NCBI GenBank assembly: GCA_964490125.1
Contig: CAZBAJ010000001.1
Location: 67,573-131,572 of the forward strand
Source: an uncultured Candidatus Saccharibacteria bacterium
Lineage (GTDB): Bacteria > Patescibacteriota > WWE3 > UBA101185 > UBA10185
DNA: 64,000 nt
Direction: 5' to 3'
Below are positions 655-16,644 of the stretch, in pieces (within the stretch, counting starts at the first letter, position 1; each line of letters opens with the position of its first letter). The notes under the pieces were generated by a model, which was not told the origin of the DNA, did not search any database, and worked only from the letters and a program-made list of their open reading frames with translations. A program made the position numbers and the translations under genes.

Positions 655-1539
655 ATGAAATACAAGTGGTGGTACATAGGTTTTTCTGCTGTACTTTTGA
701 TTCCGTGCATTATTTCCTTGGCGATATTTGGGTTAAAAACCTCCATCGATTTTACGGGCGGGTCGGTTTTAAAATTTAGTCGGACGGAAGGATCTTGGGA
801 TCAAGTTCAGGTTCATCAGATGTTTGTCGACAAAAAAATAGAAGTTGCGCAAATTTTGCTGGACGACGGAGGAAGGGCGCTGACGGTAAGAACCAAACCC
901 ATTGATTCTGCTAGAAACGAGGAAATCAAGTTAGCTTTTGGTAATGCCATTACCCAAACCTCCTTTGAAACCGTTGGCTCTTCCATTGGCGCGGAAACCG
1001 CCAAAAGAAGTCTAATTGCTTTTGGTGTGGCTTGCTTGGGCATCGTGCTTTATATAGCCTATGCTTTTAGAAATATTCCAAGACCTTATTCCAGCTTGCG
1101 GTTTGGGCTTAGTGCCATCTTGGCCATGGTTCACGACGCAATAATCGTCACTGGAGTTTTTTCGTTGCTTGGACATTTTGAGGGTGTGGAAGTCGATCCC
1201 ATGTTCTTAACGGCGCTTCTAACAATAATCGGCTTTTCCGTCCACGATACTATTGTAGTTTTTGACCGCGTCCGCGAGAATTTAGGCAAATTTAAAGGTA
1301 AAAATATCGACTGGATTGCCAATTTTTCTATTTTGGAAACCATGCGCAGGTCAATTGCTACTTCCGCCACGGTTGTAATCACCCTAACCTCGCTCTTGAT
1401 TTTTGGCGGACCTACAATAAAACACTTTATTTTAGCACTGTTGATTGGAGTAATTTCCGGGACCTATTCGTCAATCTTCAACGCTACACCCGTGCTAGTA
1501 ATCTGGGAGGACTTTTTAAGTCGACAAAAGAAACAATAG
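655..1539 (+). CDS. secF: Protein translocase subunit SecF
   Basis: SecF-like TM topology and conserved C-terminal half; longest ORF begins at 439 but the N-terminal extension is low-complexity and the canonical SecF N-terminus MKYKWWYIGF starts at ATG 655. Confidence 0.7.
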   Translation: MKYKWWYIGFSAVLLIPCIISLAIFGLKTSIDFTGGSVLKFSRTEGSWDQVQVHQMFVDKKIEVAQILLDDGGRALTVRTKPIDSARNEEIKLAFGNAITQTSFETVGSSIGAETAKRSLIAFGVACLGIVLYIAYAFRNIPRPYSSLRFGLSAILAMVHDAIIVTGVFSLLGHFEGVEVDPMFLTALLTIIGFSVHDTIVVFDRVRENLGKFKGKNIDWIANFSILETMRRSIATSATVVITLTSLLIFGGPTIKHFILALLIGVISGTYSSIFNATPVLVIWEDFLSRQKKQ

Positions 1540-1571
1540 GTCCACCGTGCGAGCGTAGCAAACCACTCTTT

Positions 1572-2111
1572 CTAAAAAGCCTTGGGCTTAAAGCCTTTGG
1601 GATTTAGAACTTTAAAGTGCTTGTTTTTCTGCGTTAAAACAAACAAACCGCTATTTTGAGCCTTTTCGGCAAAGTCGCTTGTAACAGTCATACCAGCTAT
1701 TCCGCCTAGTACTTGATAATTTTGGTAGTTTGGGAAGGATGATTTGAATAGTGGTAATTTTCTGCCTACAAAATCATTTAAATCGTTGATATGTGGCTTT
1801 TGTTTGACTTCCAGTACTGCTACAACTTTGCCGTTTGTTAGTACTATATCCCACTCGTTTCTTTGTGGGTCTCTTACATTTTTTGCTACGGTGTCAAATT
1901 TTATACCGTTAAGTTGTTTTTGAGTTTCTAGCCCCGTGTAAAAATAATCTTCGGCTACCTGTCCGATATTATTAGAAATGTTCCCATAGTCAGTAGTAAC
2001 CCTTTTTACCTCTGCGCTAAGTTCCTTTATTGCCATATCACGCTCCTTGGCGCTTTTGGCAACCTCTTTGACTATATCTTCCAGTGATTTTTTATTTGTC
2101 CTTTGTTTCAC
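1572..2111 (-). CDS. Hypothetical protein with restriction-endonuclease-like (PD-(D/E)XK) signature, paralog 1
   Basis: Motif EWDIVLTNGKVVAVLEVKQK (D...E-V-K); clear paralog of 4055..4549 (shared AEDYFY, NGIKFD, LEVK, GFKPKA C-terminus); apparent GTG start; TTGACT-N17-TAAAAG promoter-like sequence ends 6 nt before the start (leaderless?). Confidence 0.55.
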   Translation of the reverse strand: MKQRTNKKSLEDIVKEVAKSAKERDMAIKELSAEVKRVTTDYGNISNNIGQVAEDYFYTGLETQKQLNGIKFDTVAKNVRDPQRNEWDIVLTNGKVVAVLEVKQKPHINDLNDFVGRKLPLFKSSFPNYQNYQVLGGIAGMTVTSDFAEKAQNSGLFVLTQKNKHFKVLNPKGFKPKAF

Positions 2112-2296
2112 ACTAAACTTTTATCAAAACACTAAACAAAAGTCAATATGACAATTTATGTCTGTGGGATTTACATGCGGGTTTGGGACTCCAGACTTTC
2201 GCTTGCCGTCGGTTTATAAACCGAATAATCTTTTCAGATAACAAGCCCTATTATATTACCATAAAGTGGTGCAATGGGGTGTGCTAAACTTGTCGC

Positions 2297-4051
2297 ATGA
2301 AAAAATGGGTAGTTAGGGAGGTTTACAATCCCGGTGCTAATGTGCTAAATGATTTTAATTCTATTCTCGACTTACTACTACAAAATCGGGGGATCGACGA
2401 AAATTTACGCCAGGAATTTCTAAATCCATTACATATTTCAGAGTATCTAAAGAAATTGCGGAGCGACTTTAAGGAGTCGCTCAAACAAGCGCGCGATGAG
2501 ATTACCAACGCTATAAATCAAAGTCGTCCAATAATAATTCACGGCGACTACGATGCGGATGGGATTTGCGCTACCGCCATTTTGTACAAAACCCTCACAG
2601 AAACACTCGGTTACAAAAAAGTGGCTTATTTTATACCCAATCGATTTGACCAGGGCTACGGGCTTTCCGCGGATTCGGTTAAGGAAATGGACGACTTAGT
2701 GAATGGCCGATTTGGTTTAATAGATGATGTCGATAATAAAGCTGGCAAAAGGGTCGTCCTGCATAAAAACAAGTCAAACGAACCAACCGCTCTTATTATA
2801 ACGGTGGATTGTGGGATAACCGCGGAGGAGGCAGTTTTGCAACAGGCGCGCGACTTAGGTTTTAAAATTATTATAACCGACCACCACCAAAAGCAGGAAT
2901 CTCTACCCCAATCGGATGTTTTGCTTTGGAACGACCAGATGGTAGGCGCTAGTGCTGCGCTAATGTTGGCGCTTGTTTTGGGCTTGCGAGATGAGCAATT
3001 ACTTTGTTTGGCGGGCATTGCCACCGTGACGGATTTAATCCCGCTTAAAGGGTTTAATCGGGCGTTGGTTAAAAAGTCGCTTGCGATTTTAAATACCAAC
3101 CCACCTTTGGGAATAAAAACGCTCATCGATGTTGCTGGTAGATCTAACGGTGAGCTTGGGGTGTACGACCTGGGTTACATAATCGGTCCTCGTCTTAATG
3201 CCTCAGGTCGATTGGATTCAGCTTACGAGTCGCTAAAATTACTGTTGGAAAATGACAAAAAAGAAGTCGCCCAAATTGCCCAAAAACTTAACGCAGTAAA
3301 TTTAGAGCGCCAGGAAATGACCCAAAAAATGTACGACTTGGCGGAGCGCCTTTACATAGAAGATGCCGGACGCAACAAGCAGAAAATAATTATCGTAGTT
3401 TCTGAAAACTTTCATGAGGGTGTTATTGGTTTGGTGGCAGGTAAGTTGGCACAAAAATATGCTAAGCCCACAATTGCTATAAGCATTAATGGAGAAATGG
3501 CAAAAGGTTCGGTGCGGTCTGTGGCTGGTGTAAATATTATAGAATTTTTGCGACATTTTGGAGACCGGTTTACTAGTTTAGGCGGACATCCTATGGCGGC
3601 GGGTTTTTCTGTTAAAAAAGTCGACCTGACTAAACTTACAGAGGACTTATACAACTACGCGCAGGAAACCATTTCTGACGATGTTTTAGTCCCGCAACTT
3701 ACTGTGGATTTAGAATTGCCGATTGCACAAATAAGTAGCGATTTATTAAAGCAGGTCGACCAGTTAAAACCGTATGGAATAGGTAACCCGGAACCGCTCT
3801 TTCTGTCACGGAAGGTTGGTGTTGCCGGATGCGATTTTGTCGGCAAAGAGGGCTCCCATTTGTCGCTCAAACTTTTTGACGGACAAACCACCTACAAAGC
3901 CGTTATGTTTGACGCCAAAAATTTGGGAATTTCCGGCTTTAACTTGGGCGACAAACTAGATATCGTCTACACCGCGTCGCTTAAAGATTACAACGGAAAA
4001 ACCTACACGGATTTAGTTATTAAGGATTTTGCTATTTCGTTGCAAGGTTAA
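2297..4051 (+). CDS. recJ: Single-stranded-DNA-specific exonuclease RecJ
   Basis: DHH motif region IIIHGDYDADGICATAIL, DHHQ, DHHA1-like GGHPMAAG; 584 aa. Confidence 0.9.
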   Translation: MKKWVVREVYNPGANVLNDFNSILDLLLQNRGIDENLRQEFLNPLHISEYLKKLRSDFKESLKQARDEITNAINQSRPIIIHGDYDADGICATAILYKTLTETLGYKKVAYFIPNRFDQGYGLSADSVKEMDDLVNGRFGLIDDVDNKAGKRVVLHKNKSNEPTALIITVDCGITAEEAVLQQARDLGFKIIITDHHQKQESLPQSDVLLWNDQMVGASAALMLALVLGLRDEQLLCLAGIATVTDLIPLKGFNRALVKKSLAILNTNPPLGIKTLIDVAGRSNGELGVYDLGYIIGPRLNASGRLDSAYESLKLLLENDKKEVAQIAQKLNAVNLERQEMTQKMYDLAERLYIEDAGRNKQKIIIVVSENFHEGVIGLVAGKLAQKYAKPTIAISINGEMAKGSVRSVAGVNIIEFLRHFGDRFTSLGGHPMAAGFSVKKVDLTKLTEDLYNYAQETISDDVLVPQLTVDLELPIAQISSDLLKQVDQLKPYGIGNPEPLFLSRKVGVAGCDFVGKEGSHLSLKLFDGQTTYKAVMFDAKNLGISGFNLGDKLDIVYTASLKDYNGKTYTDLVIKDFAISLQG

Positions 4052-4054
4052 GAT

Positions 4055-4549
4055 CTAGTACGCTTTTGGTTTAAAACCTTCTGAATTTAGCACTCTAAAG
4101 TTTACGCCGTCCTGCGTCAACACAGAAAGCCCGTATTTCTCCGCTTCCTTCATGCTGTCTTTTGGCACTGCCATACCTGCTACACCGCCATAGACATGAA
4201 AATTTGAAAAACCTGGTACAGTTTGTTTAAAAAGGGGCAGTTTTTGTGTGGCAAAATCCTCTACATCTTTAGGATGAAGCTTGTGTTTAACTTCTAAAAC
4301 CGCTACCGAATTACCGTTTTTCAGCACAATATCCCATTCAAGGTCGTTAAACCCGCCAAAATTTTTGGCTACATCGTCATATTTAATTCCGTTTAATACT
4401 TTTTTATGCTTAAGCGCGGAGTAAAAATACTCTTCAGCCACATCACCCAAATTGTTTCCTATTCCACCCATTCTTTGCATAGCTTTTTCTACATAGGCGT
4501 CAAGTTCCGCTAATGCACGACTCCGTTTGGTTGACGAGGGTTTTTTCAT
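4055..4549 (-). CDS. Hypothetical PD-(D/E)XK-like protein, paralog 2
   Basis: EWDIVLKNGNSVAVLEVKHK motif; paralog of 1572..2111; TTGACA-N17-TATTAA on minus strand ends 6 nt before ATG, no SD (leaderless?). Confidence 0.55.
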   Translation of the reverse strand: MKKPSSTKRSRALAELDAYVEKAMQRMGGIGNNLGDVAEEYFYSALKHKKVLNGIKYDDVAKNFGGFNDLEWDIVLKNGNSVAVLEVKHKLHPKDVEDFATQKLPLFKQTVPGFSNFHVYGGVAGMAVPKDSMKEAEKYGLSVLTQDGVNFRVLNSEGFKPKAY

Positions 4550-4624
4550 AAGGATTTAATATCAAAAATCACTTCTAGTGTCAATACGACAATTTATGTC
4601 TATGGGATGTAGATAAGGGTTTGG

Positions 4625-4710
4625 GACTCCAGAGAGAGAGAGTTAAATGTGCATCACCGTCCGTGGACGATGTTGTCGTTTTAACCTCCTCTCCCTGGAG
4701 TCTTTTTTTT
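4625..4710 (+). terminator. Conserved structured hairpin (about 23-bp imperfect stem; arms GACTCCAGAGAGAGAGAGTTAAA / TTTAACCTCCTCTCCCTGGAGTC) followed by T8; copy b of a repeated element
   Basis: Inverted repeat read directly; on the minus-strand RNA the A-C mismatches become G-U wobbles (stronger fold); T8 on plus strand overlaps the stop codon of the convergent small ORF. Confidence 0.6.
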
Positions 4711-4888
4711 ACGAAAACAGCACCTCCACGATAGCGTGGGCTATCCACACAATCAGCGCCACGATTACGAGGAAAAACAACAGCCCCATCACTAGGGCCG
4801 CCCACCATTCCTCGGCCAATATCCCCAGGAACAGGGTGACCCCCAGTCCCGTGAGGACAACTTTCAACAGAAATTTGAACACCGACAT
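4709..4888 (-). CDS. Small two-TM hydrophobic peptide (60 aa, MSVFKFLLKVVLTGLGVTLFLGILAEEWWAALVMGLLFFLVIVALIVWIAHAIVEVLFS)
   Basis: SD GAGGGAGG 6 nt upstream of ATG 4888; TTGTAC-N17-TATAAT promoter on minus strand; markedly GC-rich relative to surroundings; paralog-like to 8075..8239. Confidence 0.55.
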   Translation of the reverse strand: MSVFKFLLKVVLTGLGVTLFLGILAEEWWAALVMGLLFFLVIVALIVWIAHAIVEVLFS

Positions 4889-4983
4889 CTTATCCTCCCT
4901 CGACCCAGAGTTGTTTGTCAACGATGCCTATAATTATAACATGTATTGTTGACTTGTACAAAATATTGGTTTATGTTAGACTC

Positions 4984-5254
4984 CTTACAGTCGCAAAGAT
5001 CCGGCAAACACCGGGGAGCATGGGGAAGAAAGTCCTGTTGAAGGAAGGACGCTGGAAAGTGTCGCCTAAATCCGTCAACCAAGATAAGTAGAACCCCACG
5101 GGAAAGCCCGTTACAGATTAAATCCAGTCGGCAAGAAACCGGAGGGATGCAAAGGTTTGGGTGGAAACACTCAAGCAAAATGAGGTGGCAACGCGGTAAA
5201 ACGCCCTCATGAGATTGTCAAATTAATTTTGGCGGTTTTGTGAGGGCATTTTTT
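4984..5254 (+). promoter_or_regulatory. T-box riboswitch leader (Asp/Asn) with intrinsic terminator
   Basis: Promoter TTGACT(4949)-N17-TATGTT; T-box-like AAATGAGGTGGCAACGCGG (UGGC would pair with a G73 tRNA: Asp/Asn); terminator GCCCTCAT...GTGAGGGC + T6 at 5203-5254; directly upstream of class IIb aaRS gene. Confidence 0.6.
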
Positions 5255-5296
5255 GTCGTCATACCGCAAGTGGCAATAAACCACAAGAAAGGAACC

Positions 5297-6586
5297 ATGG
5301 AGCGTACCTACATTAAAGACCTAAAAGAAAAGCTTGGGCAGGAAGTTAAAATCGACGGGTTTGTGCAAGTGCGACGGGATCAGGGCGGGATTAAATTTAT
5401 AGTTTTGCGCGATGTTACGGGAACTGTGCAATGCATTGTAATGAAGCAGTCGGGGGAGGTGTTTGACCAGGTTGGCGGGCTGTCGTTGGAATCGGTAGTA
5501 GAAATTGGCGGACTTGTTAAAGAGCAAAAGCAGGCGCCCGGCGGATTTGAAGTGGAAATAAAGTCGCTTAAAGTTTTGTCTGTTGCAGAGCCTTTGCCCA
5601 TTCCGGTAATGGAAGAAAAAGGCGGTAATGAGGTTGACGCGACTTTGCGGTTTGACTATAGGTGGATTGATCTGCGCAAGCCGGAAAAGCTTAAAATTTT
5701 TAAGGTCTGGACGGCGCTGGAGAAAGGTTTTAGAAAGTATTTTGCAGACAACGGGTTTATTCAGGTTTATTCTCCGTCAATAATGGGTACTGCTAGCGAA
5801 GGTGGCGCGGAGGTCTTTGAGATTAAATATTACGACAAAAAAGCCTATTTATCCCAGTCGCCACAATTCTACAAGCAGTTAGCCCAAGCCGCGGGTTTTG
5901 AGAAAGTGTTTTTGATGGTTCCGTATTATCGGGCGGAGCTTTCCTTTACAACCCGTCACATGACTGATTTTACCGGTTGGGATTTTGAGATGTCGTTTAT
6001 AGAGTCGCACGAGGATATTGCAAAAGCAGAAGAAGGGATGTTGGTTGAGGGTTTCAAAGCGGTTAAGGCAGAAGTCTTGTCGGACTTAGAGGTTCCTACT
6101 TTACCGTTTCCAAGGTTGACTATGAAGGAAGCTAAAGAGCGACTTAAAAAGGTTGGAATACCTAGCGAGAAGGACGGAGACTTTTCTTCTGAAGAAGAGC
6201 GGGAAATTGGTCGACTTATGAAGGAAGAAACCGGACATGATTTTGTATTTGTTACGGAATATGGCGCACCGTACCGGGCTTTTTACCACATGCGACCAGA
6301 AAATGATCAGAGTGTAACCAAAAGCTACGATCTTATGTACAAAGGTTTAGAGATTACAACGGGTGCCCAAAGAGAACATCGTCCGGAAATTCTAAAGAAG
6401 CAGGCAATAGAAAAAGGCGTGCCGACCGAGCCCTTAGAGGGCTATTTTAGCTACTTTAAGTACGGTTGTCCGCCTCATGGCGGCGCAGGCATAGGTCCCG
6501 GCAGAATTGTCATGAAGATTTTGGATTTGGAAAGCGTAAAAGACGCCACCTTTTTGCCAAGGGATGTAAAGCGTCTGACGCCTTAG
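5297..6586 (+). CDS. aspS: Aspartyl- or asparaginyl-tRNA synthetase (class IIb, archaeal/eukaryal-type, about 430 aa)
   Basis: N-terminal OB-fold then class II catalytic core (GAPYRAFYHMRP... GGAGIGPGR motif 3); start taken as MERTYIK at 5297 (SD AAAGGAA) because ATG 5240 lies inside the T-box terminator. Confidence 0.8.
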   Translation: MERTYIKDLKEKLGQEVKIDGFVQVRRDQGGIKFIVLRDVTGTVQCIVMKQSGEVFDQVGGLSLESVVEIGGLVKEQKQAPGGFEVEIKSLKVLSVAEPLPIPVMEEKGGNEVDATLRFDYRWIDLRKPEKLKIFKVWTALEKGFRKYFADNGFIQVYSPSIMGTASEGGAEVFEIKYYDKKAYLSQSPQFYKQLAQAAGFEKVFLMVPYYRAELSFTTRHMTDFTGWDFEMSFIESHEDIAKAEEGMLVEGFKAVKAEVLSDLEVPTLPFPRLTMKEAKERLKKVGIPSEKDGDFSSEEEREIGRLMKEETGHDFVFVTEYGAPYRAFYHMRPENDQSVTKSYDLMYKGLEITTGAQREHRPEILKKQAIEKGVPTEPLEGYFSYFKYGCPPHGGAGIGPGRIVMKILDLESVKDATFLPRDVKRLTP

Positions 6587-6607
6587 GTTTAAGGCCGTTG
6601 CGACAAT

Positions 6608-6631
6608 AAATTCTATTCAGATTAGAGACAA
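6608..6631 (+). promoter_or_regulatory. Conserved 24-nt motif AAATTCTATTCAGATTAGAGACAA, copy 1, immediately upstream of TTGTCA -35-like hexamer
   Basis: Near-identical copies at 10987..11010 and 53438..53461, each just after or overlapping a stop codon and 1-6 nt upstream of a -35-like hexamer. Confidence 0.5.
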
Positions 6632-6682
6632 CTATCTTGTCAAGTGTATTTTTTAGTGTAATCTTCCCCGCAGGTGGACCAT

Positions 6683-6755
6683 GGGCCGTCCGATCCGGGA
6701 TCAAGCTTGATCTTCAATCTTGCATAGACGGGTTCGACTCCCGTACGGTCCACCA
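6683..6755 (+). ncRNA. tRNA-like element (7-bp acceptor GGGCCGT/ACGGTCC, T-arm ACGGG-TTCGACT-CCCGT, discriminator A, CCA) without a canonical D/anticodon region
   Basis: T-loop TTCGACT and encoded CCA read directly; region between acceptor and T-arm (38 nt, contains palindrome GATCAAGCTTGATC) does not fold as anticodon arm; promoter-like TTGTCA-N16-TAATCT upstream. Confidence 0.35.
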
Positions 6756-6849
6756 AAAATTTAATTTGACTTTTTAATTGGTTTAGTGTAAGTTATTAAC
6801 AGAAGATCAAGCTTGTATCCGACGAAAGTCTCTTGCAAGATGCACAGAA

Positions 6850-6871
6850 GCTCGCGAAAGCGGGCTTTTTT
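6850..6871 (+). terminator. Intrinsic terminator/attenuator hairpin GCTCGC-GAAA-GCGGGC + T6 in leader of carboxypeptidase gene
   Basis: Stem-loop and U-tract read directly, 35 nt upstream of ATG 6906. Confidence 0.6.
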
Positions 6872-6905
6872 GTTTGTGTCTAGATGCTACAATAATCCCT
6901 AGCGT

Positions 6906-7970
6906 ATGGATATCGGTATCGTTAGGAACACATTAATAGTTGTTCTGCTTTTGGGTGCAAAAACCCTAGCTTTCTTGGAATCCAAAGTGTTTGACATTTT
7001 GGTAAAAATTGCACTGGCTCTGGCGATTGGTTACGCGCTGGCGTTAAATAGATTATCAATCGAACACCTGTACACGAGGGCACAGGGTGATGTAAAAACA
7101 TACATTTGGTACAAAACCCTGCCAGCCGACTATTTTGCCAAGCTAGACCAAGAGTCCCAGGCCGTTTTTGCCAGGTATCAAGAGGCCATCAAGCCTAAAC
7201 CACCAACTAGAATCGCAGAAACTCCGTTCCCATCAATTACTGCCAAGTCGCACATTATAATAGATGTCACAACAAACACCGTTTTAAGTTCCAAGGATAC
7301 CAATTTGCCTCTGCCTCCTGCCTCAACCGCTAAGCTAGCAACCGCTTTAGCGTCGCTCAAAATTTACAAGCTGAATGAAGAAATCACCGTTCCTCAGTTT
7401 TGTACGCAGGTTGACGGCACAAAAGCCGAGTTTCTCCAAGGTCAAAAATTTCTGGTGGGTGACTTATTAAAAGCCCTGTTGGTTTATTCCTCTGGTGACG
7501 CTGGTTGTGTGCTATCCATTGGCAAAACTTCTTACGCGGATTTTATTAGACTTATGAACGAGGTCGCCAAAGAGGCGGGCATGCAAAACACAAAATTTAC
7601 TAATCCTATTGGTTTGGACGACGCGGACGGTCAAAATTTAGCTTCCGCGGAGGATTTAGCAAAGCTGGGCATGTTTGCGGTTAAAAACGACTTTATAAAA
7701 GAAGTTGTACGACTTAAAGACCTTGAGCTTAAAGATTTGGACGGAGAATATGTTAAGCGACTTGCAAACACCAATAAATTGTTGACGGAAATTCCGGAAA
7801 GTGTAGGCATAAAAACCGGTACGACCACAGGGGCCGGGGAGGTTTTAATTTATGAATACGCCAAGGACAAGACGAATTTAATAATCGTCGTAATGGGTTC
7901 AGCTGATCGCTTTAAGGATGTAAAAGATTCATTGGCTTGGGCTCTAAATTCCTACGAATGGGATAAATAG
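6906..7970 (+). CDS. dacA: Serine-type D-Ala-D-Ala carboxypeptidase (PBP5/6 family, S11)
   Basis: SXXK (ASTAKL), SXN-like (SSGDAG), KTG (KTGTT) motifs; N-terminal TM. Confidence 0.75.
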   Translation: MDIGIVRNTLIVVLLLGAKTLAFLESKVFDILVKIALALAIGYALALNRLSIEHLYTRAQGDVKTYIWYKTLPADYFAKLDQESQAVFARYQEAIKPKPPTRIAETPFPSITAKSHIIIDVTTNTVLSSKDTNLPLPPASTAKLATALASLKIYKLNEEITVPQFCTQVDGTKAEFLQGQKFLVGDLLKALLVYSSGDAGCVLSIGKTSYADFIRLMNEVAKEAGMQNTKFTNPIGLDDADGQNLASAEDLAKLGMFAVKNDFIKEVVRLKDLELKDLDGEYVKRLANTNKLLTEIPESVGIKTGTTTGAGEVLIYEYAKDKTNLIIVVMGSADRFKDVKDSLAWALNSYEWDK

Positions 7971-7997
7971 GATTGGACGGATCTGGAAACTAGAACG

Positions 7998-8076
7998 GGA
8001 TTCCAGAGAGAGAGAGTTAAATGTGCGACAAGATGTTGTCGTCGGTTTAACCTCCTCTCTCCGGAGTCTTTTTTTT
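7998..8076 (+). terminator. Conserved structured hairpin + T8, copy c of repeated element (arms GATTCCAGAGAGAGAGAGTTAAA / TTTAACCTCCTCTCTCCGGAGTC)
   Basis: Same arms and shared loop words (TGTGC, GATGTTGTCGT) as copy at 4625..4710; follows dac stop; T8 overlaps stop codon of convergent small ORF. Confidence 0.6.
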
Positions 8077-8239
8077 ATTTCTCCTTCTCCTTCTGCCAAA
8101 ACTTGATGGTGGAAAGGATACAAAGGCCGGCTATGCCGACCAGCAGAGTCGCCTCTAGCCACCGTCGCTGAGATGCGAGCCAGGCTGACTCTATTAGCGC
8201 CGACACCACCAGCGCTAACGCTAAGATATACTTGACCAT
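8075..8239 (-). CDS. Small two-TM hydrophobic peptide (54 aa, MVKYILALALVVSALIESAWLASQRRWLEATLLVGIAGLCILSTIKFWQKEKEK), not in supplied ORF track (<60 aa)
   Basis: Translated by hand from minus strand; SD AGGGAGG 4 nt upstream of ATG; GC-rich; same TM-charged-TM architecture and same placement relative to hairpin as 4709..4888. Confidence 0.5.
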   Translation of the reverse strand: MVKYILALALVVSALIESAWLASQRRWLEATLLVGIAGLCILSTIKFWQKEKEK

Positions 8240-8310
8240 GGTCCCTCCCTGTTTGACTTAGTCGCTTTTCAAAGCTCCGCGGTTATTATAACAAATATAA
8301 GGAGGAAAGT

Positions 8311-9471
8311 CTATTTTGAGGTTGGCGAACCCGTGTTACTTTCTACAGGCAAGATATAGTCGCCGGAGATGGCGGGGTAGTAAACGGTGAGTTGACCCGC
8401 ACCCCCGCCTACTGTCGTGTAATTTCCCTCAAACACATAAATTGGTTGTAAATACTTTTGCAATTTTGGCGTGTCGTAATAAGCCAGGTAGATACTGTTA
8501 ATTAAAATCTTGTCAATTCTTATTGGCACATACGGTTCAAACGGATTGCCGTCCTTTGCCATAATCCCAGCAATTACGCCCTTGTTTTTATTGACTTCCG
8601 CCCACGCCATGGCAACAGAAATTATCGGGTAAGTAGCGTTTTGGTCTTTTTCTTTGTCCACTAATTCCCATTGATACGCCTCCACCTTGGGGAAAATTAA
8701 CTGCTTGTATTTTGTATCTCTCGGCGTTCCTACCCAAACATGTAACAAACCTTTATACGGGTCCGGTCCTAAGATAGGAAAGCTTTTAAAACCTCTAAAA
8801 AAATCCACCCTAACAATTTGCGTTTCGTAGTCAAAGTTTACGGCGTGAATTTCTCCGCCTACATATTTGCCCAAATACGCTTTAGAAGTTCCTGTGTAGT
8901 ACATTTCTCCAAACCGTCCGGCAGAAACTAGCATGTTTCTGGCTTGGTCTGTTGCGGTGTCAGCCTTTAGTCGTCCAGCAATATAATAATTAGCTTTGCC
9001 AAATAATGGTAGATCTAATTTAATTTCCCGGGTTTTAGTATTGACATCAAGTCGCCCGTTAAAAGTAGGATCTACCCATGAATAAATTGGGTCAGTAGTT
9101 TGACTGATAAAACTGTCGTCATAATAACCTAAAATAGCTCCTGTGCGTTGGGCGTTTTTGCCTGCTTCATAGGAAAAAAGTGGTTGACGGAGTCTAAAAA
9201 CGGGCATTTTATTGGGAAAATCTGTGGGAAGACGACCGTTTTTGGTGTTTAAAATGTACTGCGGGTCCGAATTAGTGATTTTTTTGTATTGAAACTCCGG
9301 CGCGTCAATTTTGCCAAAGAGGGTGGTTGGCAGATCTTTTGGCGGATTAATCATGTAGACGAGTTTTTTGACGGGTGCTTTTAGGGTAACAAAGGCTATG
9401 TATAAGCCCAAAACCGCCACTACGGTAAAAAGAATGCGTTTAAATAGAGCAGATGTTTCTACCAAATTCAC
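8311..9471 (-). CDS. Hypothetical membrane-anchored (signal-anchor) secreted-domain protein
   Basis: N-terminal TM helix then 350-aa non-hydrophobic domain; no recognised catalytic motif. Confidence 0.5.
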   Translation of the reverse strand: MNLVETSALFKRILFTVVAVLGLYIAFVTLKAPVKKLVYMINPPKDLPTTLFGKIDAPEFQYKKITNSDPQYILNTKNGRLPTDFPNKMPVFRLRQPLFSYEAGKNAQRTGAILGYYDDSFISQTTDPIYSWVDPTFNGRLDVNTKTREIKLDLPLFGKANYYIAGRLKADTATDQARNMLVSAGRFGEMYYTGTSKAYLGKYVGGEIHAVNFDYETQIVRVDFFRGFKSFPILGPDPYKGLLHVWVGTPRDTKYKQLIFPKVEAYQWELVDKEKDQNATYPIISVAMAWAEVNKNKGVIAGIMAKDGNPFEPYVPIRIDKILINSIYLAYYDTPKLQKYLQPIYVFEGNYTTVGGGAGQLTVYYPAISGDYILPVESNTGSPTSK

Positions 9472-9517
9472 AAATTTATTATAGCAACAAATTGTGCTGG
9501 TGGTGTAAAATGTTGAT

Positions 9518-10999
9518 ATGACCGAAGATACAAAGTTGGTAAAAACTAGGATGGCACCCAGTCCGACCGGAGAGTTTCATATTGGTGGCATGCGTACACT
9601 GCTTTATAACTACGCTTTTGCCAAGAAAAATCACGGTAAATTTCTTTTAAGGATAGAAGACACAGATCGGGAAAGGTTTGTGGAAGGAGCAATAGAAAGG
9701 GCTTACCAGGTGATAAAAGATTACGGTTTGAGTTGGGATGAAGGTCCGTTAGTAGGAGGTCCAAACGAGCCTTATGTTCAGTCACAGAGACTGGACTTGT
9801 ACAAAAAACACGCTTTAGAACTTGTGGAAAAAGGTCACGCTTATTACTGCTTTTGTACAAAGGAGCGACTTGATGAGATGCGTAAGAAGCAACAGCATGA
9901 GCATTTAAGCGTTACAAAGTACGATCGCCATTGTTTGAGTTTGACCTCGGAACAAGTTGCTGAAAATCTAAAAACGGGTGTATCTTATGTTATACGGATG
10001 AAAGTGCCTTCAGACAGGGCGGTTTCTTATGACGATGTGTTTTTGGGGAAAATTGAGGTACCGTCCAACGACATTGAAGATCAGGTATTGTTAAAATCGG
10101 ATGGATTTCCCACCTACCACCTTGCCGTAGTTGTTGACGATCATTTAATGGGCGTTACCCACATTTTGCGCGGTAGAGAGTGGCTTCCATCTACGCCCAA
10201 ACATGTTTTGTTGTATGAGTTTTTTGGTTGGGATATGCCTATAACAGGTCACTTTCCGGTTTTAAAAGAAGTCGGTTCAACTAAAAAAATGTCTAAACGC
10301 TTTGGGGATGTTGCGGCTACGGACTTTCTAAAAAACGGCTACTTGCCCGAGGCGCTTTTAAACTTCATCATGCTTTTGGGCTGGAACCCCGGCACAGAGC
10401 AAGAAGTATTTTCTTTGGAGGAATTTATTAAGGTTTTTTCGCTTGAACGAATTCATAAAACAGATTTAGTGGCTTTTGATAGGGAAAAGTTATTATGGTT
10501 TAACGGTTACTACATCCGCCAACTATCCGATAGCGATCTTTACGAAAAAATATCTGCGTGGGCAAAAAAGTGGGATACAGATTTGAATTTGGAATTAAAG
10601 GATCGGGAGTTTTCCACTAGAATTTTGGCGCTAATAAAGGACAGAATGAAATTACTTAGCGACTTTAAGGAGCTGTCGACCTACTTTTTTGTAGATCCCG
10701 TGGTTGACACCAAAGCATTCTCTAATCATTCTGGAGAAAAATGGCAAGCTATTTTGCAGGGTTTTGAAAAAGCTTTCTCAGAACTTGAAGAAGGCCGTTG
10801 GAATAAGGAAAATCTAGATAAAATATCGCACCAGGTTTTGGAAGAGCAAGGATTTTCACCAAAAGAGGCGTTTATGACCTTGCGTCTTGCCGTTACAGGA
10901 CAAACTGCTACACCGCCACTTTTTGATGTGCTTGAACTTTTGGGAAAAAGAGAGGTGGGGCGCCGTCTTAAAGTCGTCCTACCAACAAATTCTAATTAG
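9518..10999 (+). CDS. gltX: Glutamyl-tRNA synthetase
   Basis: HIGH-class motif PTGEFHIGG and KMSKR; 493 aa. Confidence 0.9.
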   Translation: MTEDTKLVKTRMAPSPTGEFHIGGMRTLLYNYAFAKKNHGKFLLRIEDTDRERFVEGAIERAYQVIKDYGLSWDEGPLVGGPNEPYVQSQRLDLYKKHALELVEKGHAYYCFCTKERLDEMRKKQQHEHLSVTKYDRHCLSLTSEQVAENLKTGVSYVIRMKVPSDRAVSYDDVFLGKIEVPSNDIEDQVLLKSDGFPTYHLAVVVDDHLMGVTHILRGREWLPSTPKHVLLYEFFGWDMPITGHFPVLKEVGSTKKMSKRFGDVAATDFLKNGYLPEALLNFIMLLGWNPGTEQEVFSLEEFIKVFSLERIHKTDLVAFDREKLLWFNGYYIRQLSDSDLYEKISAWAKKWDTDLNLELKDREFSTRILALIKDRMKLLSDFKELSTYFFVDPVVDTKAFSNHSGEKWQAILQGFEKAFSELEEGRWNKENLDKISHQVLEEQGFSPKEAFMTLRLAVTGQTATPPLFDVLELLGKREVGRRLKVVLPTNSN

Positions 11000-11010
11000 A
11001 TTAGAGACAA
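10987..11010 (+). promoter_or_regulatory. 24-nt motif copy 2 (AAATTCTAATTAGATTAGAGACAA) overlapping gltX stop, upstream of recA promoter TTGACA-N17-TACATT
   Basis: Sequence identity to copies 1 and 3. Confidence 0.5.
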
Positions 11011-11071
11011 CTTGTTGACAAAAGTCTCGCGCTGAAATACATTCACACCATAAATTGCAGAAGGAGGAAAT

Positions 11072-12196
11072 ATGGCACAAAAAGCTGACAAAATTGATAA
11101 GTCGGACAAAGCCGAAAAAAGCGGAAAGGCGCTGGCGTTACAATCAGCGTTAGATCAAATTAAAAAGTCGTACGGTGACGGCTCTATTATGAAGCTGGGC
11201 GACAAAGTATTAGAGAAAGTTGCAGTAATTCCCACGGGTTCTATTGCTTTAGACTTGGCGTTAGGAGTTGGCGGATTGCCAAAAGGCAGAATTATAGAAA
11301 TTTACGGACCGGAATCTTCCGGCAAGACAACCCTGTGCCAGCATATTATTGCGGAGGCTCAAAGAATGGGCGGGACTGCGGCGTTAATTGACGCGGAACA
11401 CGCTTTTGATCCCATTTACGCGGAAAAAACCGGTGTAAACATTAAAGACTTGTTGGTTTCCCAACCGGATACCGGTGAGCAAGGTTTGGAGATTGCCGAC
11501 ACTTTAATAAGAAGCAACGCCGTGGATTTGATTGTAGTGGACAGTGTGGCGGCTTTAGTACCAAAGGCGGAAATAGAAGGTGACATTGGTGACAGTTTTA
11601 TGGCATTGCAGGCCAGACTTATGAGCCAGTCGTTGCGTAGGCTTAGTGGCGCGGTGAGTAGGTCTAACTGCACATTAGTTTTTACCAACCAATTAAGAAT
11701 GAAAATTGGTGTAATGTTTGGTAATCCGGAAACTACTCCCGGTGGACGAGCTTTGCGCTTTTACGCCAGCGTGCGGATGGAGATTAGAAAAATTGAAGAC
11801 ATTAAAGGTGAGGGTCAGGCGACAGGTATAAGATGCAAAGTGACGGTAAGAAAAAATAAAGTGGCACCGCCTTTTAGAGTAGCGGAGTTTGACATTATGT
11901 TTGCCCAAGGAATCAGCAAAGAGGGCAGTTTGCTAGATGTGGGATCGGAGTTTGGGATTATTAAAAAGTCGGGTTCTTGGTACGAGTATAACGGGGAAAA
12001 GTTGGGTCAGGGTAAGGAGTCGGCGCGGGTGTATTTGCGGGAAAATAAAAAGTTGGCCGACGAGTTAGAGAAGAAGATTAGGGAGTTCTCCACCCAAAAG
12101 TCAGAGGAATTTTTGTCTTTGGGACAAGAGGAGAACGGTGGAAAGGGAGGTTCCGATCCGTCTTCGGTTCTCTCGCCAGACTTAGATGAAGAGTAG
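11072..12196 (+). CDS. recA: Recombinase RecA
   Basis: Walker [12 protein letters not shown], conserved L2 region; acidic C-terminal tail; SD GAAGGAGGA. Confidence 0.95.
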
Positions 12197-12235
12197 CCGT
12201 AGTGCGGTGAAAATCGTAAAGAAAGTTGGTAGTAT

Positions 12236-12466
12236 ATGTTAATGAAGAATAAGCTAACTGGCAGAAGACCAGGTCATATTTATGTAGGCGGTAGATGGCT
12301 TAAGATCGGCTCTGATACAGGTATAGAGACTACTATTCCTGATTACGATGCCCAGTACCTTAAGCGTCTGTTTCGCGAAATTCGAGAAACTAAGCCTTTT
12401 CCACAGCCCCAGGAAGTAGAGTATGAAGGTGCTTGCTCCAGATGTGGGAGAAAAACCTATTATTAA
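12236..12466 (+). CDS. Putative antitoxin partner of PIN protein (uncharacterised 76 aa)
   Basis: Small ORF immediately upstream of and overlapping PIN-domain gene by 44 nt; no recognised DNA-binding motif. Confidence 0.3.
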   Translation: MLMKNKLTGRRPGHIYVGGRWLKIGSDTGIETTIPDYDAQYLKRLFREIRETKPFPQPQEVEYEGACSRCGRKTYY

Positions 12467-12956
12467 GACAGTACTTGACACAAACATTTTGCAATATTTG
12501 CAGAAATCGGTGTTTTCTACGGATTTGGCTGACTTTATTACTAGATTTAGAGAAAGGGATTCTAAACCTAAGATATCGGATATTAGTCTTTGCGAGTTGC
12601 TTTCGGGCTGTAATCACAATCAGGAAGTGGCTTCTTTAAAGATCTTAAATCAGTTTGAAAGGTATTCAATAGATGAGGATATACTGACGGTTGCTGCGAA
12701 ATTACAGAACATCTATCGACTGTTGGGCGTGGAACCAGATCAAGTCAGCTTAGCTGATAGGATAATTGCCGCAACCTCTATAGTAATGGGTGCGGATATC
12801 CTAACCGCAAATGTCAATGACTTTCCGCGTCCGGTATTTAAAGAGAAACACGAGGAGCTGTTTTTATACAGAAAAGGATACAAAACTTGCTTGCAGGTCG
12901 TTCAAATATTGTCGCCAAACTGGGAGTTGGTAGAAAGTTACTTAACAGATGCATGA
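12423..12956 (+). CDS. vapC: PIN-domain ribonuclease (VapC-like toxin)
   Basis: N-terminal VLDTNIL motif and C-terminal ADRIIAATSIVMGADILTANVNDF typical of PIN/VapC. Confidence 0.65.
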   Translation: MKVLAPDVGEKPIIKTVLDTNILQYLQKSVFSTDLADFITRFRERDSKPKISDISLCELLSGCNHNQEVASLKILNQFERYSIDEDILTVAAKLQNIYRLLGVEPDQVSLADRIIAATSIVMGADILTANVNDFPRPVFKEKHEELFLYRKGYKTCLQVVQILSPNWELVESYLTDA

Positions 12957-13503
12957 CGAAATTTATCAAAAAATACTAAACAAGGTGATGTTGTTTTTGT
13001 CGTACCGACCAAGGACAACCCAGGAGGTAAAGCAAAGGTTGGGGAAGTATTTAAAGTCAGAAAAAGATTTAGCGGATCCCCAGTACGACGAGTTAAAAAA
13101 GCAAATTACCCACGAAATTTTGGATTACCTTGATCAGAATAAACTTGTGAGTGACGAGGAGTTTGCCAAACTACTCATTGAGTCCAAAACCAAAGGTAAA
13201 AGTGTCTTGGGCAAGCGCGCAATTTTGGCTAAACTTATGCAAAAGGGCATTAGTAAAAGTGACGCAGGTATGTTTATTGACACTACGGTTTCTACCCAAG
13301 ACGAGCTAACAACCGCGATAAAAGCCCTTATTGCCAGATATAAAATCACCGCCTTTGCCGGGTCTATGCCAGGTCATGCTCTGGAACCCCAGCTTTACGA
13401 CAACCCTAAAACCCGCGGGAATATGGCAAATTACCTTGCTACTCGGGGATTTTCCTACGACATTGCCAAGCAGGCGGTTGACTATTTGCTAAAACGCCCG
13501 TAA
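12949..13503 (+). CDS. recX: Regulatory protein RecX
   Basis: Helical repeats with LSYRPRTTQEVKQRL and KLMQKGISKSDA patterns; position downstream of recA; ATGA overlap with preceding gene. Confidence 0.6.
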   Translation: MHDEIYQKILNKVMLFLSYRPRTTQEVKQRLGKYLKSEKDLADPQYDELKKQITHEILDYLDQNKLVSDEEFAKLLIESKTKGKSVLGKRAILAKLMQKGISKSDAGMFIDTTVSTQDELTTAIKALIARYKITAFAGSMPGHALEPQLYDNPKTRGNMANYLATRGFSYDIAKQAVDYLLKRP

Positions 13504-13545
13504 AATCAGAGTCGCTTATGAAATTCACATTTTTAAGGAGGACAT

Positions 13546-15339
13546 ATGAATACATTACTAATGCTGTTGGTGGCGGTTCTGCTTGCGGTTGTGGCGATTC
13601 TTGCGTTTGTTCTAATAAAAAAGACCAAAAATCTACCCCAACTTCCGTCTAGCTTAAAAAGTTCCCAAGATCAGTTAGTGTTGCAGGGCGACAAATCAGT
13701 GCAGGGCGGTTCGACGGTGCAAAAAATCGACCGAATCGATACAAGTAGTCACCCAGAGCAAAAAGATCGGTTGGGGCAAGGGTATCAAGCAGATCAATAC
13801 AGTCAACCAAGCCACATTAATCAAAGCCAACAAAATCAACCAGTAGACAAAGCTAGCTCTACTGCGCAAGTCAACCAGCCCAACCAACTCAACCAAATTA
13901 ATCAGACTACTCAAGTCAGCCAAGAACAAGTCCAGAGGTTTGTGGACCAGGCAAAGTCTAAAGCCAGGGAAATTATTATCGAAGCCAAGGACGAGGCTAT
14001 TAAAATAAAAAGTTTGGCGGAGTCGGAATCGGCAAAGGTGCGGGGCGAGGTTACCTCGTTAGAAAAAAAAGTGGCGGACAAGCTCACCCAACTAGATACT
14101 AAAGAAAAAGAGTTGGAAGACAAGTCGCAAAAATTAAGTCAAACCCAACAAGAATTACAAAAGAATAAGGAAAAGTTAGATCAGACGGTTACGGAGGCGC
14201 AGGAAAAACTCCAAGCCGTTTCCGGGTTAACTAAAGAGGAGGCAAAAAACCAGCTCCTTGCCAGTGTGGAAAAAGACCTTAAGCAGGAAAAAGGCAAACG
14301 CGTTAAGGAGATGGAGGAGGAAATTAAAAACGAGAGCGACAAGTTGGCGCAGGACATCCTGATTACAGCCATGCGTAAAGGCGCCACGGATCTGGTGGTG
14401 GAGCATACGGTTTCCAAAATTAAATTGCCCGACGATGACATGAAGGGCAGAATCATAGGTAAAGAGGGACGCAATATTAGGACTTTTGAAGAGCTTACGG
14501 GTGTGGATTTGGATATGGATAGCTCGCCCGGCGATATTATGATTTCCTCTTTTGACCCCGTGCGACGGGAAATTGCTAGACTTTCTATGGAAAAACTTAT
14601 TTTGGACGGTAGGATTCAACCTGCTCGAATAGAGGAAATTGTATTGGCGACCCAAAAGGACATGGATCAAATTCTCTTTAAAGAGGGGGAAAATCTGTGT
14701 CATCGGCTTGGGGTTTACAATTTACCGCGAGATATTGTGGCGGTTTTAGGTCGCTTTAAATTCAGGTTCTCTTATGGTCAAAATATGATTGAACACACGC
14801 TTGAGGAAACGCGGATCGGTGTTTCTATTGCCCAAGAAATTAAGGCGGATGTAGAAACGGTAAAAATGGGTTGTTTGTTGCACGACATTGGAAAAGTTAT
14901 TTCCGACGAAGAAGGTACGCATATTCAGCTAGGAGTGGACTTTATTAAAAAGTATAAGCTGTCCGACAAAGTGGTAAACTGCGTGGCGGAACATCACGGC
15001 GACAAGCCCTTTACTTCTATTGAGTCTGCCATTGTTAACTTGGCCGACCACATAAGTGGCGCTCGCCCGGGTGCCAGGAGCGAAGATTACGAGTCGTACA
15101 AAAAAAGAATGGACGACTTAGAAAACGCCGCAACTTCCTTTGACGGGGTAGAAAAAGCTTATGCCATTTCTGCGGGTAGGGAGGTTAGGGTAATTGTAAA
15201 ACCAGAGCGGGTGGATGACGCCACAGCCTCTGTTCTAGCGCGCGAGATTGCTAAAAAGATAGAACTAGAACAAAGTTATCCTGGTGTGGTAAAGGTAACG
15301 GTAATTAGAGAGGTCAGGGTGTCGGAGACGGCTAAATAG
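13546..15339 (+). CDS. rny: Ribonuclease Y
   Basis: N-terminal TM, coiled coil, KH domain (GRIIGKEGRNIRTFE), HD domain (LLHDIGK); contains about 100-aa Q/N-rich low-complexity insert after TM. Confidence 0.9.
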   Translation: MNTLLMLLVAVLLAVVAILAFVLIKKTKNLPQLPSSLKSSQDQLVLQGDKSVQGGSTVQKIDRIDTSSHPEQKDRLGQGYQADQYSQPSHINQSQQNQPVDKASSTAQVNQPNQLNQINQTTQVSQEQVQRFVDQAKSKAREIIIEAKDEAIKIKSLAESESAKVRGEVTSLEKKVADKLTQLDTKEKELEDKSQKLSQTQQELQKNKEKLDQTVTEAQEKLQAVSGLTKEEAKNQLLASVEKDLKQEKGKRVKEMEEEIKNESDKLAQDILITAMRKGATDLVVEHTVSKIKLPDDDMKGRIIGKEGRNIRTFEELTGVDLDMDSSPGDIMISSFDPVRREIARLSMEKLILDGRIQPARIEEIVLATQKDMDQILFKEGENLCHRLGVYNLPRDIVAVLGRFKFRFSYGQNMIEHTLEETRIGVSIAQEIKADVETVKMGCLLHDIGKVISDEEGTHIQLGVDFIKKYKLSDKVVNCVAEHHGDKPFTSIESAIVNLADHISGARPGARSEDYESYKKRMDDLENAATSFDGVEKAYAISAGREVRVIVKPERVDDATASVLAREIAKKIELEQSYPGVVKVTVIREVRVSETAK

Positions 15340-15446
15340 GATTTTGTTTTGGAAGGGAATGTATTGCGAGGATCTGGGCGTCCGCCAAAAGCGGACAGGG
15401 ACCCAGTCCGAGCAAGACTTCCCGACAAAACATCAACGAATAAACT

Positions 15447-16229
15447 ATGAGAATACTATACATCGGCGAAATCGTCGCAAAACTTGGTCGAAAAGCAGTT
15501 AAAGAGGTATTGCCAAGCCTTATTTCTAGTGATAGGATAGACCTTGTTATTGCCAATGCCGAGAATTTGGCTCACGGACGGGGCGCAACCAAGGAGACGC
15601 TCGAGGAGATGATGGCAACGGGTGTAAATTACTTTACAGGTGGCGACCACATTTTTTGGCAAAAGGACTTTGAAGATTACGCCACTGAATTGCCGGTTGT
15701 GTGTCCTGCCAACTATCCGGAACCGGTTGCGGGCAAAACCTACGCCGTTATAGAGACCAAAGAGTTTAAGGTGGCAATATTAAATCTTATGGGCAGAACC
15801 TTTATGAATGAAAACTTTGACAGCCCCTTTCAAAAAATAGATTATTTTCTTAATTCTCTTTTACCTTCGCAAGGGGTGGACGCGCAAAAAGACTTTATCC
15901 TGGTGGACTTTCACGCTGAAGCCTCCAGCGAAAAATTGGCGTTTGCTAATTATGTTGACGGACGGGTGGGGGCGGTTATAGGCTCTCACACGCACATTCC
16001 CACCGCGGATGTCCAGATGTTACCAAAAGGTACCTATTTTGTTAGCGACGCGGGGATGACGGGTTCGGCTGATTCCGTTTTAGGCGTCAAAACCCAAATA
16101 ATTTTAAACAAATATCTTACAGCCAGAAACCAAAAGTTTGAATGGGAAGAAGATGGACGCGCGTGGTTTAGGAGCGTTCTTATTGATACCAAAGCAAAGC
16201 AGATTTCCAGAATTGATAGGCTTGTTTAG
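15447..16229 (+). CDS. ymdB: YmdB-family metallophosphoesterase (2',3'-cyclic-nucleotide phosphodiesterase-like)
   Basis: N-terminus MRILYIGEIVAKLGRKAV and GDH/HTH metallophosphoesterase signatures; conserved rny-ymdB synteny. Confidence 0.75.
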   Translation: MRILYIGEIVAKLGRKAVKEVLPSLISSDRIDLVIANAENLAHGRGATKETLEEMMATGVNYFTGGDHIFWQKDFEDYATELPVVCPANYPEPVAGKTYAVIETKEFKVAILNLMGRTFMNENFDSPFQKIDYFLNSLLPSQGVDAQKDFILVDFHAEASSEKLAFANYVDGRVGAVIGSHTHIPTADVQMLPKGTYFVSDAGMTGSADSVLGVKTQIILNKYLTARNQKFEWEEDGRAWFRSVLIDTKAKQISRIDRLV

Positions 16230-16254
16230 CCTTTGAAAGGGGGTGTATTTTATT

Positions 16255-16530: not shown

Positions 16531-16556
16531 TTAACCTAGGGTTTAGTACTTGAGCC

Positions 16557-16596: not shown

Positions 16597-16644
16597 ACCG
16601 GAGGACTTATTAATGAGGATAATTAGGTTTTGGTACAGTTTGCT

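Follow-up and report, generated by a model that had tools for sequence, protein, structure and literature searches.

Phage morons, in the concept of Hendrix and Juhala, are single genes that carry their own sigma-70 promoter and stem-loop terminator, are placed between two genes that are direct neighbours in relatives, and deviate in base composition. The minimal mobile elements of Neisseria are cassettes that are exchanged between conserved flanking genes by transformation and homologous recombination, and natural competence has been reported in the Saccharibacteria phylum. Other loci with which small genes may be compared are the type I toxin-antitoxin loci whose RNAs overlap at their 3' ends, such as txpA/RatA, bsrG/SR4 and par of E. 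faecalis. The genomes of Saccharibacteria and other members of the Candidate Phyla Radiation (CPR) are tiny and highly syntenic, and the ways in which these bacteria acquire new functions are poorly understood. Here we describe a 64,000-nucleotide (nt) stretch of a Candidatus Saccharibacteria (TM7) chromosome (contig CAZBAJ010000001.1, positions 67,573 to 131,572; 41.6% GC), which as a whole is called the window, and in it a small unit, cassette c, that consists of a promoter, an open reading frame (ORF) of 54 aa and a long hairpin and lies next to the gene dac. Site c is an accessory gene slot and not a conserved peptide or regulatory RNA, and on balance we are inclined to regard it as one of a small family of autonomous, moron-like accessory micro-gene cassettes that are exchanged by recombination. 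Full-text literature searches returned no description of such cassettes in Saccharibacteria.

Cassette c and its reading frame

The gene order in the window is secF, a 179-aa gene on the minus strand, recJ, a 164-aa gene on the minus strand, cassette a, a T-box leader with the gene of a class II aminoacyl-tRNA synthetase (aaRS; Asp/Lys/Asn type), dac, cassette c, a 386-aa gene on the minus strand and gltX, and the wider context of the cassettes is the housekeeping cluster secDF-recJ-aaRS-dac-gltX-recA. Three cassette sites lie inside this single 8-kb housekeeping cluster, namely site r upstream of the 179-aa gene, site a upstream of its 164-aa paralog and site c between dac and the 386-aa gene, and all hairpin copies of the window (two, plus one remnant, in 64 kb) are found within 6 kb. 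The full cassette c unit spans 7971-8310 with the minus strand as its sense strand, and it consists, in this order, of an extended -10 promoter, a 5' untranslated region (UTR) with a stem-loop, a ribosome binding site, a small ORF with high GC content at third codon positions (GC3), the hairpin and, 3' of it, about 25 nt of flanking DNA. Its features are the following.

8285-8313, minus strand: promoter, TAGACT, 17 nt, TG-n-TATAAT, with 10/12 hexamer matches
8240-8284, minus strand: 5'UTR with the stem-loop GCUUUGAAAAGC (8264-8275) and the Shine-Dalgarno (SD) sequence AGGGAGG (8244-8250)
8075-8239, minus strand: ORF of 54 aa with two predicted transmembrane (TM) segments, the variable cargo of the cassette; GC 0.527, GC3 0.673
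8069-8076, plus strand: T8 tract, a U-tract for dac; on the minus strand an A8 that overlaps the TAA stop of the ORF
7999-8068, no strand assigned, 70 nt: near-perfect long palindrome or hairpin, 95.4 bits with the covariance model R1
7971-7998, minus strand: 3' flank between the hairpin and the dac stop (CCCGTTCTAGTTTCCAGATCCGTCCAATCC), homologous to that at site c of the related locus L008

An earlier note on this DNA had placed the module at 7975-8260, and the real unit is larger in that it includes the conserved promoter and 5'UTR. The score of this promoter is the top one in positions 1-20000, tied with four other sites, and the -10 box and the UTR downstream of it are kept at site c of L003 and L008, two loci of relatives that have the 5'UTR pattern GTTATAATAnCnnCGGnGCTTTnAAAAGCGAC in common with the window; a related 5'UTR is also found at site a of L007 and L008 and at site r of L027. 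The SD sequence stands 4 nt before the ATG (reverse complement of 8237-8239), the peptide begins with MVKYILAL and ends with QKEKEK, and the ORF occupies the frame from UTR to hairpin exactly. The reverse complement of T8075, T8076 and A8077 is the TAA stop of this ORF, so that the last two Ts of the T8 tract and the next A form the stop of a convergent minus-strand ORF just as the earlier note had described it, and its hand translation of a GC-rich 54-aa peptide with an AGGGAGG SD was also correct. The 3' flank was about 13/22 identical to that of site a when the two were compared by eye. In the intergenic gaps of the window the only GC-rich hydrophobic small ORFs are the two beside the hairpins.

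An exact look-up in the public gene-call index found no gene on record for the 54-aa product, which is consistent with the remark in the earlier note that the ORF track had missed this peptide. No credible homologue was found by a word-index search or by a full HMMER scan of 1.84 billion representatives, and the sole HMMER match, a 1198-aa protein aligned in 15 short stretches, was judged spurious. No family was matched at the curated thresholds of Pfam, NCBIfam, PHROGs and PADLOC. With its strong promoter, SD and raised GC3 the frame looks coding, and its product is probably a real, strain-specific small membrane protein with two TM segments.

Occupancy and exchange of the sites in related loci

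Syntenic loci of relatives, designated by L-numbers, were fetched via dac, the family of the 164-aa protein, the family of the 386-aa protein and a DNA pattern of the 3' arm of the hairpin. Site c was found to be empty in L004, L011, L026, L027 and L029, where dac either overlaps the 386-aa gene or is separated from it by 10-58 nt. It is filled in L003 and L008, where a promoter/5'UTR of clear homology (TTTGTTATAATAnCCnCGGnGCTTTnAAnAGCGACTA) and the same hairpin enclose a hydrophilic cargo, of 63-69 aa in the former and 67 aa in the latter, that is unrelated to the 54-aa ORF. The earlier note had named a lack of conservation of the 54-aa frame in related genomes as a refutation, and by this test the idea of a conserved peptide fails. 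In the L003 scaffold a filled allele of site c is followed, after an N-gap, by an empty allele, which points to polymorphism within the population. This scaffold is a GTDB representative that is chimeric at the site c locus: its N-gaps at 2338-2347 and 2703-2712 join the filled and the empty alleles, the 3' end of dac is duplicated and one of the gaps lies inside the hairpin, from which it follows that assemblers break at the palindrome.

The other two sites have the following features in the window.

4933-4960, minus strand: promoter of cassette a, TGTACA, 16 nt, TG-n-TATAAT, with 10/12 hexamer matches, among the best in 20 kb
4709-4888, minus strand: ORF of 59 aa with two predicted TM segments, the cargo of cassette a; GC3 0.75
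4625-4702, no strand assigned: hairpin copy a, 109.6 bits with R1, followed by a T8 at 4703-4710
2185-2224, no strand assigned: decayed hairpin remnant of site r (GGGACTCCAGA ... GCCGTCGGTTTATAAACCGA)

The module of hairpin-T8 and micro-ORF does recur, as had been claimed, with its arms in 7999-8068 and 4625-4702, and the remnant suspected near 2140-2240 is the decayed hairpin of site r. The two peptides resemble each other in that both have two TM segments and are GC-rich, and to this extent the likeness seen in the earlier note holds, but their sequences are unrelated and as paralogs they were ruled out (E 0.72). At site a, the 59-aa TM ORF is present in the window and, with 97% DNA identity, in L022 and L023; a 42-aa and a 54-aa ORF are found there in L008 and L015, and a 40-aa ORF together with a 69-aa Cys-rich (CxxCxGxG-rich) ORF in L007, and of the cassette only CTCTCTGGAGTCCCAAACC is present in L024 and no trace in L025. 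At site r there is a decayed remnant in L008 as in the window, in L013 a complete hairpin that follows a truncated ORF and a fragment of an insertion sequence (IS), and in L027 and L029 diverged hairpins behind ORFs of 120 aa and 73 aa, respectively. The fragment in L013 (26-352) is that of a transposase with a weak rve_3 match, and it abuts the truncated Cys-rich cassette ORF that lies just before the hairpin of site r; an IS landed inside this cassette. When all cassettes were compared against all others by blastn, similarity was restricted to the promoter/UTR and the hairpin ends, and an SD and an ATG at the correct spacing were found in every cassette irrespective of its cargo. At the level of DNA these comparisons establish that the cassette frame is homologous between sites and strains and that the cargo ORFs are unrelated and interchangeable.

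When the cassette of the window (4701-5000) was compared to that of L022, 291 of 299 positions were identical, as against about 70% in the 164-aa gene, about 79% in the aaRS gene and 70-80% in the flanks, and the identity broke down within the hairpin loop. When L007 was compared to L008, the flanks were 96-100% identical and the interior, from the 5'UTR to the base of the hairpin, was unrelated with about 45% identity, which returned to the level of the flanks at the 5' base of the stem. The comparison of the window with L008 at site c gave about 80% identity for the promoter/UTR and for the hairpin, as it did for the coding DNA of the flanks, and only about 36% for the interior of the ORF. 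From this difference between ends and interior, and from similar comparisons, it follows that the frame was retained and constrained and that the cargo was replaced. Taken together, the alignments demonstrate horizontal exchange of the inserts between strains. The GC3 of the cassette ORFs is 0.49-0.75 compared to 0.35-0.48 in host genes, which would be expected if the cargo came from a foreign gene pool or followed a special codon regime and is consistent with the called cassette frames being coding.

In cassette c, a promoter of its own (8285-8313) and a terminator-like hairpin (7999-8068) stand around one small gene, and the unit stands between two genes that are direct neighbours in relatives and is deviant in composition (GC 0.53 against 0.416 for the genome, GC3 0.67 against 0.35-0.48 for host genes). 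Judged by these features it is an autonomous promoter-ORF-hairpin unit that is absent from the orthologous sites of relatives. It does not reside in a phage or prophage; its context, secF-recJ-AsxRS-dac-gltX-recA, is housekeeping. A phage origin was considered and rejected, as no true match to the hairpin, to the UTR or to the family of the 164-aa nuclease was found in IMG/VR.

The hairpin, termination and alternative explanations

On the plus strand the arms of hairpin c are GATTCCAGAGAGAGAGAGTTAAA at 7999-8021 and TTTAACCTCCTCTCTCCGGAGTC at 8046-8068, and the 24-nt loop between them holds a small hairpin of its own. In the window the 24-mer CCAGAGAGAGAGAGTTAAATGTGC is found at two positions only, 4629 and 8003, compared to 0 expected from 100 shuffles, and the folding energy of the hairpin, relative to shuffled sequences, was -40.9 kcal/mol (z -7.0) on the plus strand and -33.7 kcal/mol (z -5.8) on the minus strand. 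Homologous hairpins were found 3' of the cassette ORFs in L003, L007, L008, L013, L015, L022, L023, L027 and L029, and every hairpin lies no more than about 25 nt from the cassette stop codon. With model R1 no hairpin was found beyond the cassette sites in the window and about 150 kb of related loci (about 210 kb in total). In the collection scans (GTDB with the two-arm pattern, JGI and IMG/VR) neither the 5' arm nor the two-arm pattern gave a match, since the 5' arm is variable and is masked by Ns in L003; with the 3'-arm pattern L013 and L015 were found, together with seven matches due to chance. Rfam gave nothing for the whole window at the gathering threshold, and an E-value scan of 1900-8400 gave only spurious microRNA (miRNA)-precursor matches for the hairpin.

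In the nine canonical copies the stem is paired in 96% of the cells with no two-sided change. The 3' arm, in the sense of the cassette, is invariant except for the length of (CT)n and the 5' arm varies between A and G. With no variation in the 3' columns, covariation statistics on these copies carry no information. The earlier note had read compensatory changes from the arms of the two window copies, and all three differences between them are one-sided. Two-sided changes, the sign of the covariation by which it had proposed to check the hairpins, are absent from the nine canonical copies and present in the diverged hairpin of L029, where an 18-bp stem is kept by 3-4 two-sided changes (C-G to U-A, A-U to G-C), none of them disruptive. 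The hairpin structure is therefore maintained over longer distances.

Downstream of dac the hairpin of -40.9 kcal/mol and the T8 that follows it have the form of a canonical Rho-independent terminator, and they have this form on the plus strand only; to judge from its sequence, the plus-strand hairpin with T8 is in this genome a textbook terminator for dac, in line with the claim that the plus-strand partner of the ORF is the 3' end of dac. On the minus strand, which is the sense strand of the cassette, the stem is followed by CCCGUUCUAG and this is not a canonical intrinsic terminator. The T8 (or A8) is confined to the two window copies, as it is absent from L003, L007, L008 and L013 and is replaced by A5GA in L022, and it is not the part of a conserved element for which it had been taken. 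In L027 and L029 the hairpins are followed by U-rich 3' flanks in the sense of the cassette. The two window copies do not differ at all between the TAA stop and the arm, A8 included, nor at the start of the arm itself, and this stretch of identity suggests gene conversion between them.

The explanation that we favour is that a fixed expression frame, made up of a promoter with an extended -10 box, a short 5'UTR that contains a stem-loop, a strong SD and a (GA)n/(CU)n hairpin of 60-100 nt directly after the stop codon, would serve an interchangeable small ORF of foreign-looking composition that sits inside it. The hairpin would be the 3'-end element of the cassette transcript, either a terminator or insulator, and an exonuclease barrier, and it would act in both directions because it is nearly palindromic. 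The plus-strand T8 would make hairpin c the intrinsic terminator of the convergent dac mRNA, and hairpin a would stop plus-strand read-through from recJ, which is without a terminator of its own and only 3 nt away from the convergent 164-aa gene. The exchange most likely takes place by homologous recombination via the conserved frame and the flanking genes, and the palindrome may be a fragile hot spot for breakpoints during this exchange.

Several points weigh against this explanation. The invariance of the 3' arm over nine copies, (CT)n length apart, is beyond the needs of a plain terminator. The canonical copies have no U-tract in the sense of the cassette, and CCCAAACCC or CCCGUUCUAG comes next after the stem, and therefore termination on the sense strand would be non-canonical. 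In the model-fitted alignment the cassette-sense strand has 22 G.U cells vs 7 mismatches, but the summed minimum free energy (MFE) of 10 hairpins, each folded independently, was -345.9 vs -341.5 kcal/mol and favoured neither strand, and therefore no strand of function is claimed despite the G.U counts. The 54-aa peptide is known from one sequence only. In the 59-aa ORF, the differences between the window and L022, as read by eye, are three nonsynonymous to one synonymous, and purifying selection on this peptide is therefore not demonstrated.

One alternative is that the hairpin is a DNA-level recombination site, an analogue of attC, or the target of a hairpin or cruciform nuclease, at which cassettes are captured and released, and we consider this unlikely. 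It agrees with the presence of a hairpin 3' of every cargo ORF, with the invariant 3' arm, with exchange breakpoints at or inside the hairpin (the loop in the window and L022, the 5' base of the stem in L007 and L008), with a gene of the PD-(D/E)xK fold beside 2/3 of the sites and with remnants that retain only the distal 3' arm, namely CTCTCTGGAGTCC in L024, TCTGGAGTCC at site r of the window and TGGAGTCC at site r of L008. The junctions of these remnants, however, differ by 2-5 nt and therefore look like imprecise deletions. An integron would have a tandem array beside intI and attI, whereas the cassettes here are single with no further R1 copies, and no integrase or recombinase was found among the precomputed Pfam matches within 10 kb on either side of L008, L026, L027 and L029. 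The rule for attC, R''(RYYYAAC)...R'(GTTRRRY) read 5'-to-3' at the base of the stem, does not describe the hairpin, in which the boxes are reversed in order and placed in the inner stem, with GTTAAA in the 5' arm, TTTAAC in the 3' arm and a 17-bp (GA)n/(CT)n stem outside them. As for a nuclease target, L027 and L029 have hairpins without the nuclease gene and L010, L011 and L025 have the nuclease gene without hairpins. A more speculative possibility, to which we give little credence, is a hairpin-delimited capture system without an integrase, in which a fixed expression socket would swap foreign micro-genes and the palindrome would be the recombination substrate, perhaps cut by the adjacent PD-(D/E)xK nuclease (the 164-aa and 179-aa paralogs). 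If true, this would be a minimal gene-sampling device for an ultra-small genome.

That the locus is like a type I toxin-antitoxin system appears improbable. Here the 3' end of the mRNA for a TM toxin would be targeted by a convergent plus-strand RNA that ends at the hairpin-T8, and the antisense partner would be the dac 3'UTR at copy c and a small RNA at copy a. The ORFs of the window are indeed small, hydrophobic frames of 54-59 aa with two TM segments, each with a strong promoter and SD, the T8 provides a clean plus-strand 3' end and the convergent transcripts would be fully complementary over the hairpin. Yet the cargos found in the same frame at the same sites are hydrophilic, acidic or Cys-rich, the T8 is missing in relatives, the two peptides are unrelated to each other and neither matches a toxin family at the curated threshold. 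A dedicated antisense RNA gene is not seen either, as there is no sigma-70-like plus-strand promoter within 4550-4625 and only the 3' end of dac as a partner at copy c, and Rfam offers no family beyond the spurious miRNA-precursor matches.

We also find it hard to believe that the 54-aa frame is not a gene and that the transcript from promoter to hairpin is a non-coding RNA or the DNA is decaying. The frame has no homologue and no public gene call, and 54 open codons in DNA of 53% GC are not very improbable; against this stand the correctly spaced SD and ATG of every cassette whatever the cargo, the raised GC3, the clean two-TM pattern and the exact fit of the ORF into the space between UTR and hairpin. 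Very improbable, finally, is a selfish palindromic repeat, be it a miniature inverted-repeat transposable element (MITE), a repetitive extragenic palindromic (REP) element or a Correia-like one, that lies beside small ORFs by chance: its 23-nt inverted arms around a variable core, its two copies and one remnant and its (CT)n length polymorphism would suit such a repeat, but there are only three homologous sites and none elsewhere in the window or in about 150 kb of related loci, pattern scans of GTDB (two-arm pattern), JGI and IMG/VR gave nothing beyond the loci already named, there is no evident target-site duplication, and the conserved promoter/UTR accompanies the hairpin at filled sites with a readable upstream region, L013 with its IS fragment being the exception.

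Neighbouring genes and comparison with known systems

The 179-aa (1572-2111, minus strand) and 164-aa (4055-4549, minus strand) proteins are accessory paralogs with 52% identity that belong to no Pfam family. Their predicted fold is that of a PD-(D/E)xK nuclease behind a long N-terminal helix (AlphaFold2 model, predicted local distance difference test score, pLDDT, 85.7), and the best Foldseek matches of the model were NucS/EndoMS and the nuclease domains of Can2/Card1. This gene is missing or decayed in L026, L027 and L029 and lies beside HepT and ParE genes in L010. The promoters of the two paralogs contain an overlapping palindrome, GACATAAATTGTCATATTGACA, that includes the -35 box (4560-4612 and 2141-2184) and is also found in L008, L013, L022, L024 and L025; between the two genes it is conserved to about 90%, as against only 52% for their proteins, and from its position and sequence it looks like an operator for some regulator.

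Upstream of the class II aaRS gene (5240-6586) there is a T-box leader (4987-5211, plus strand) with a terminator hairpin at 5203-5247, which shares a back-to-back promoter region with cassette a and is visibly kept before the aaRS gene in L007, L008, L022, L024 and L026. Its score of 40 bits (E 2e-6) is far under the Rfam gathering score of 93, and standard annotation would therefore miss it. The 319-nt gap between the aaRS gene and dac (6587-6905) holds a canonical terminator at 6846-6869. A further autonomous micro-gene was found between recA and gltX in L027 (8150-8500) and L028 (1924-2115), and its product is a peptide of 63 aa with two TM segments that weakly matches Phage_holin_2 at a sub-threshold E of 0.003. 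As this gene comes with a TATAAT promoter of its own, a GGAGG SD and a terminator that has an ordinary GC stem, it is a moron-like insert in a frame different from that of the cassettes.

The locus is a testable case for accessory-gene flux in Saccharibacteria, in that unrelated micro-genes, several of them for membrane peptides missed by gene callers, are found in a conserved frame between essential housekeeping genes. It would help in finding strain-specific small proteins, which may serve in host interaction or immunity, and the frame is a natural landing pad with promoter and terminator that would be useful for genetics in cultivable Saccharibacteria. It also calls for caution, as a repeated hairpin and ORF in two copies in one genome are insufficient to infer a conserved regulatory RNA/peptide pair.

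Compared to type I toxin-antitoxin loci, the window has in common with them a gene for a small hydrophobic peptide with a strong promoter and a convergent transcript over its 3' end, and it differs in that no dedicated antisense promoter and no toxin family match were found and the cargo is often hydrophilic. The geometry between dac and the ORF, which is like A8-hairpin-T8 with a stem that is stable on both strands, is that of a bidirectional terminator of convergent genes, whereas the stem of 22-23 bp is much longer than usual, the U-tract is on a single strand and in this genome only, and the sequence is conserved between sites and strains. With integron cassettes and attC the cassettes share a small ORF followed by an imperfect palindrome of 60-100 nt and a variable cargo of atypical composition, mostly without an assigned function; unlike these, they have no intI, attI or array, their R-boxes are misordered and misplaced, no extrahelical bases are evident and they have promoters of their own. 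They are like morons in being single genes with their own promoter and stem-loop, inserted between neighbours and deviant in base composition, and unlike them in that they lie in a chromosomal housekeeping cluster and not in a prophage, that the terminator is without a sense U-tract in most copies and that many unrelated cargos stand under one homologous promoter/UTR/hairpin frame. As in the minimal mobile elements of Neisseria, the content between the same flanks differs across strains and identical cassettes occur in divergent backgrounds, and DNA uptake followed by homologous recombination is a plausible route of exchange in Saccharibacteria; the cassettes described here differ from those elements in being far smaller (0.3-0.5 kb, with micro-ORFs), in bringing their own expression frame and in occupying three sites within 8 kb.

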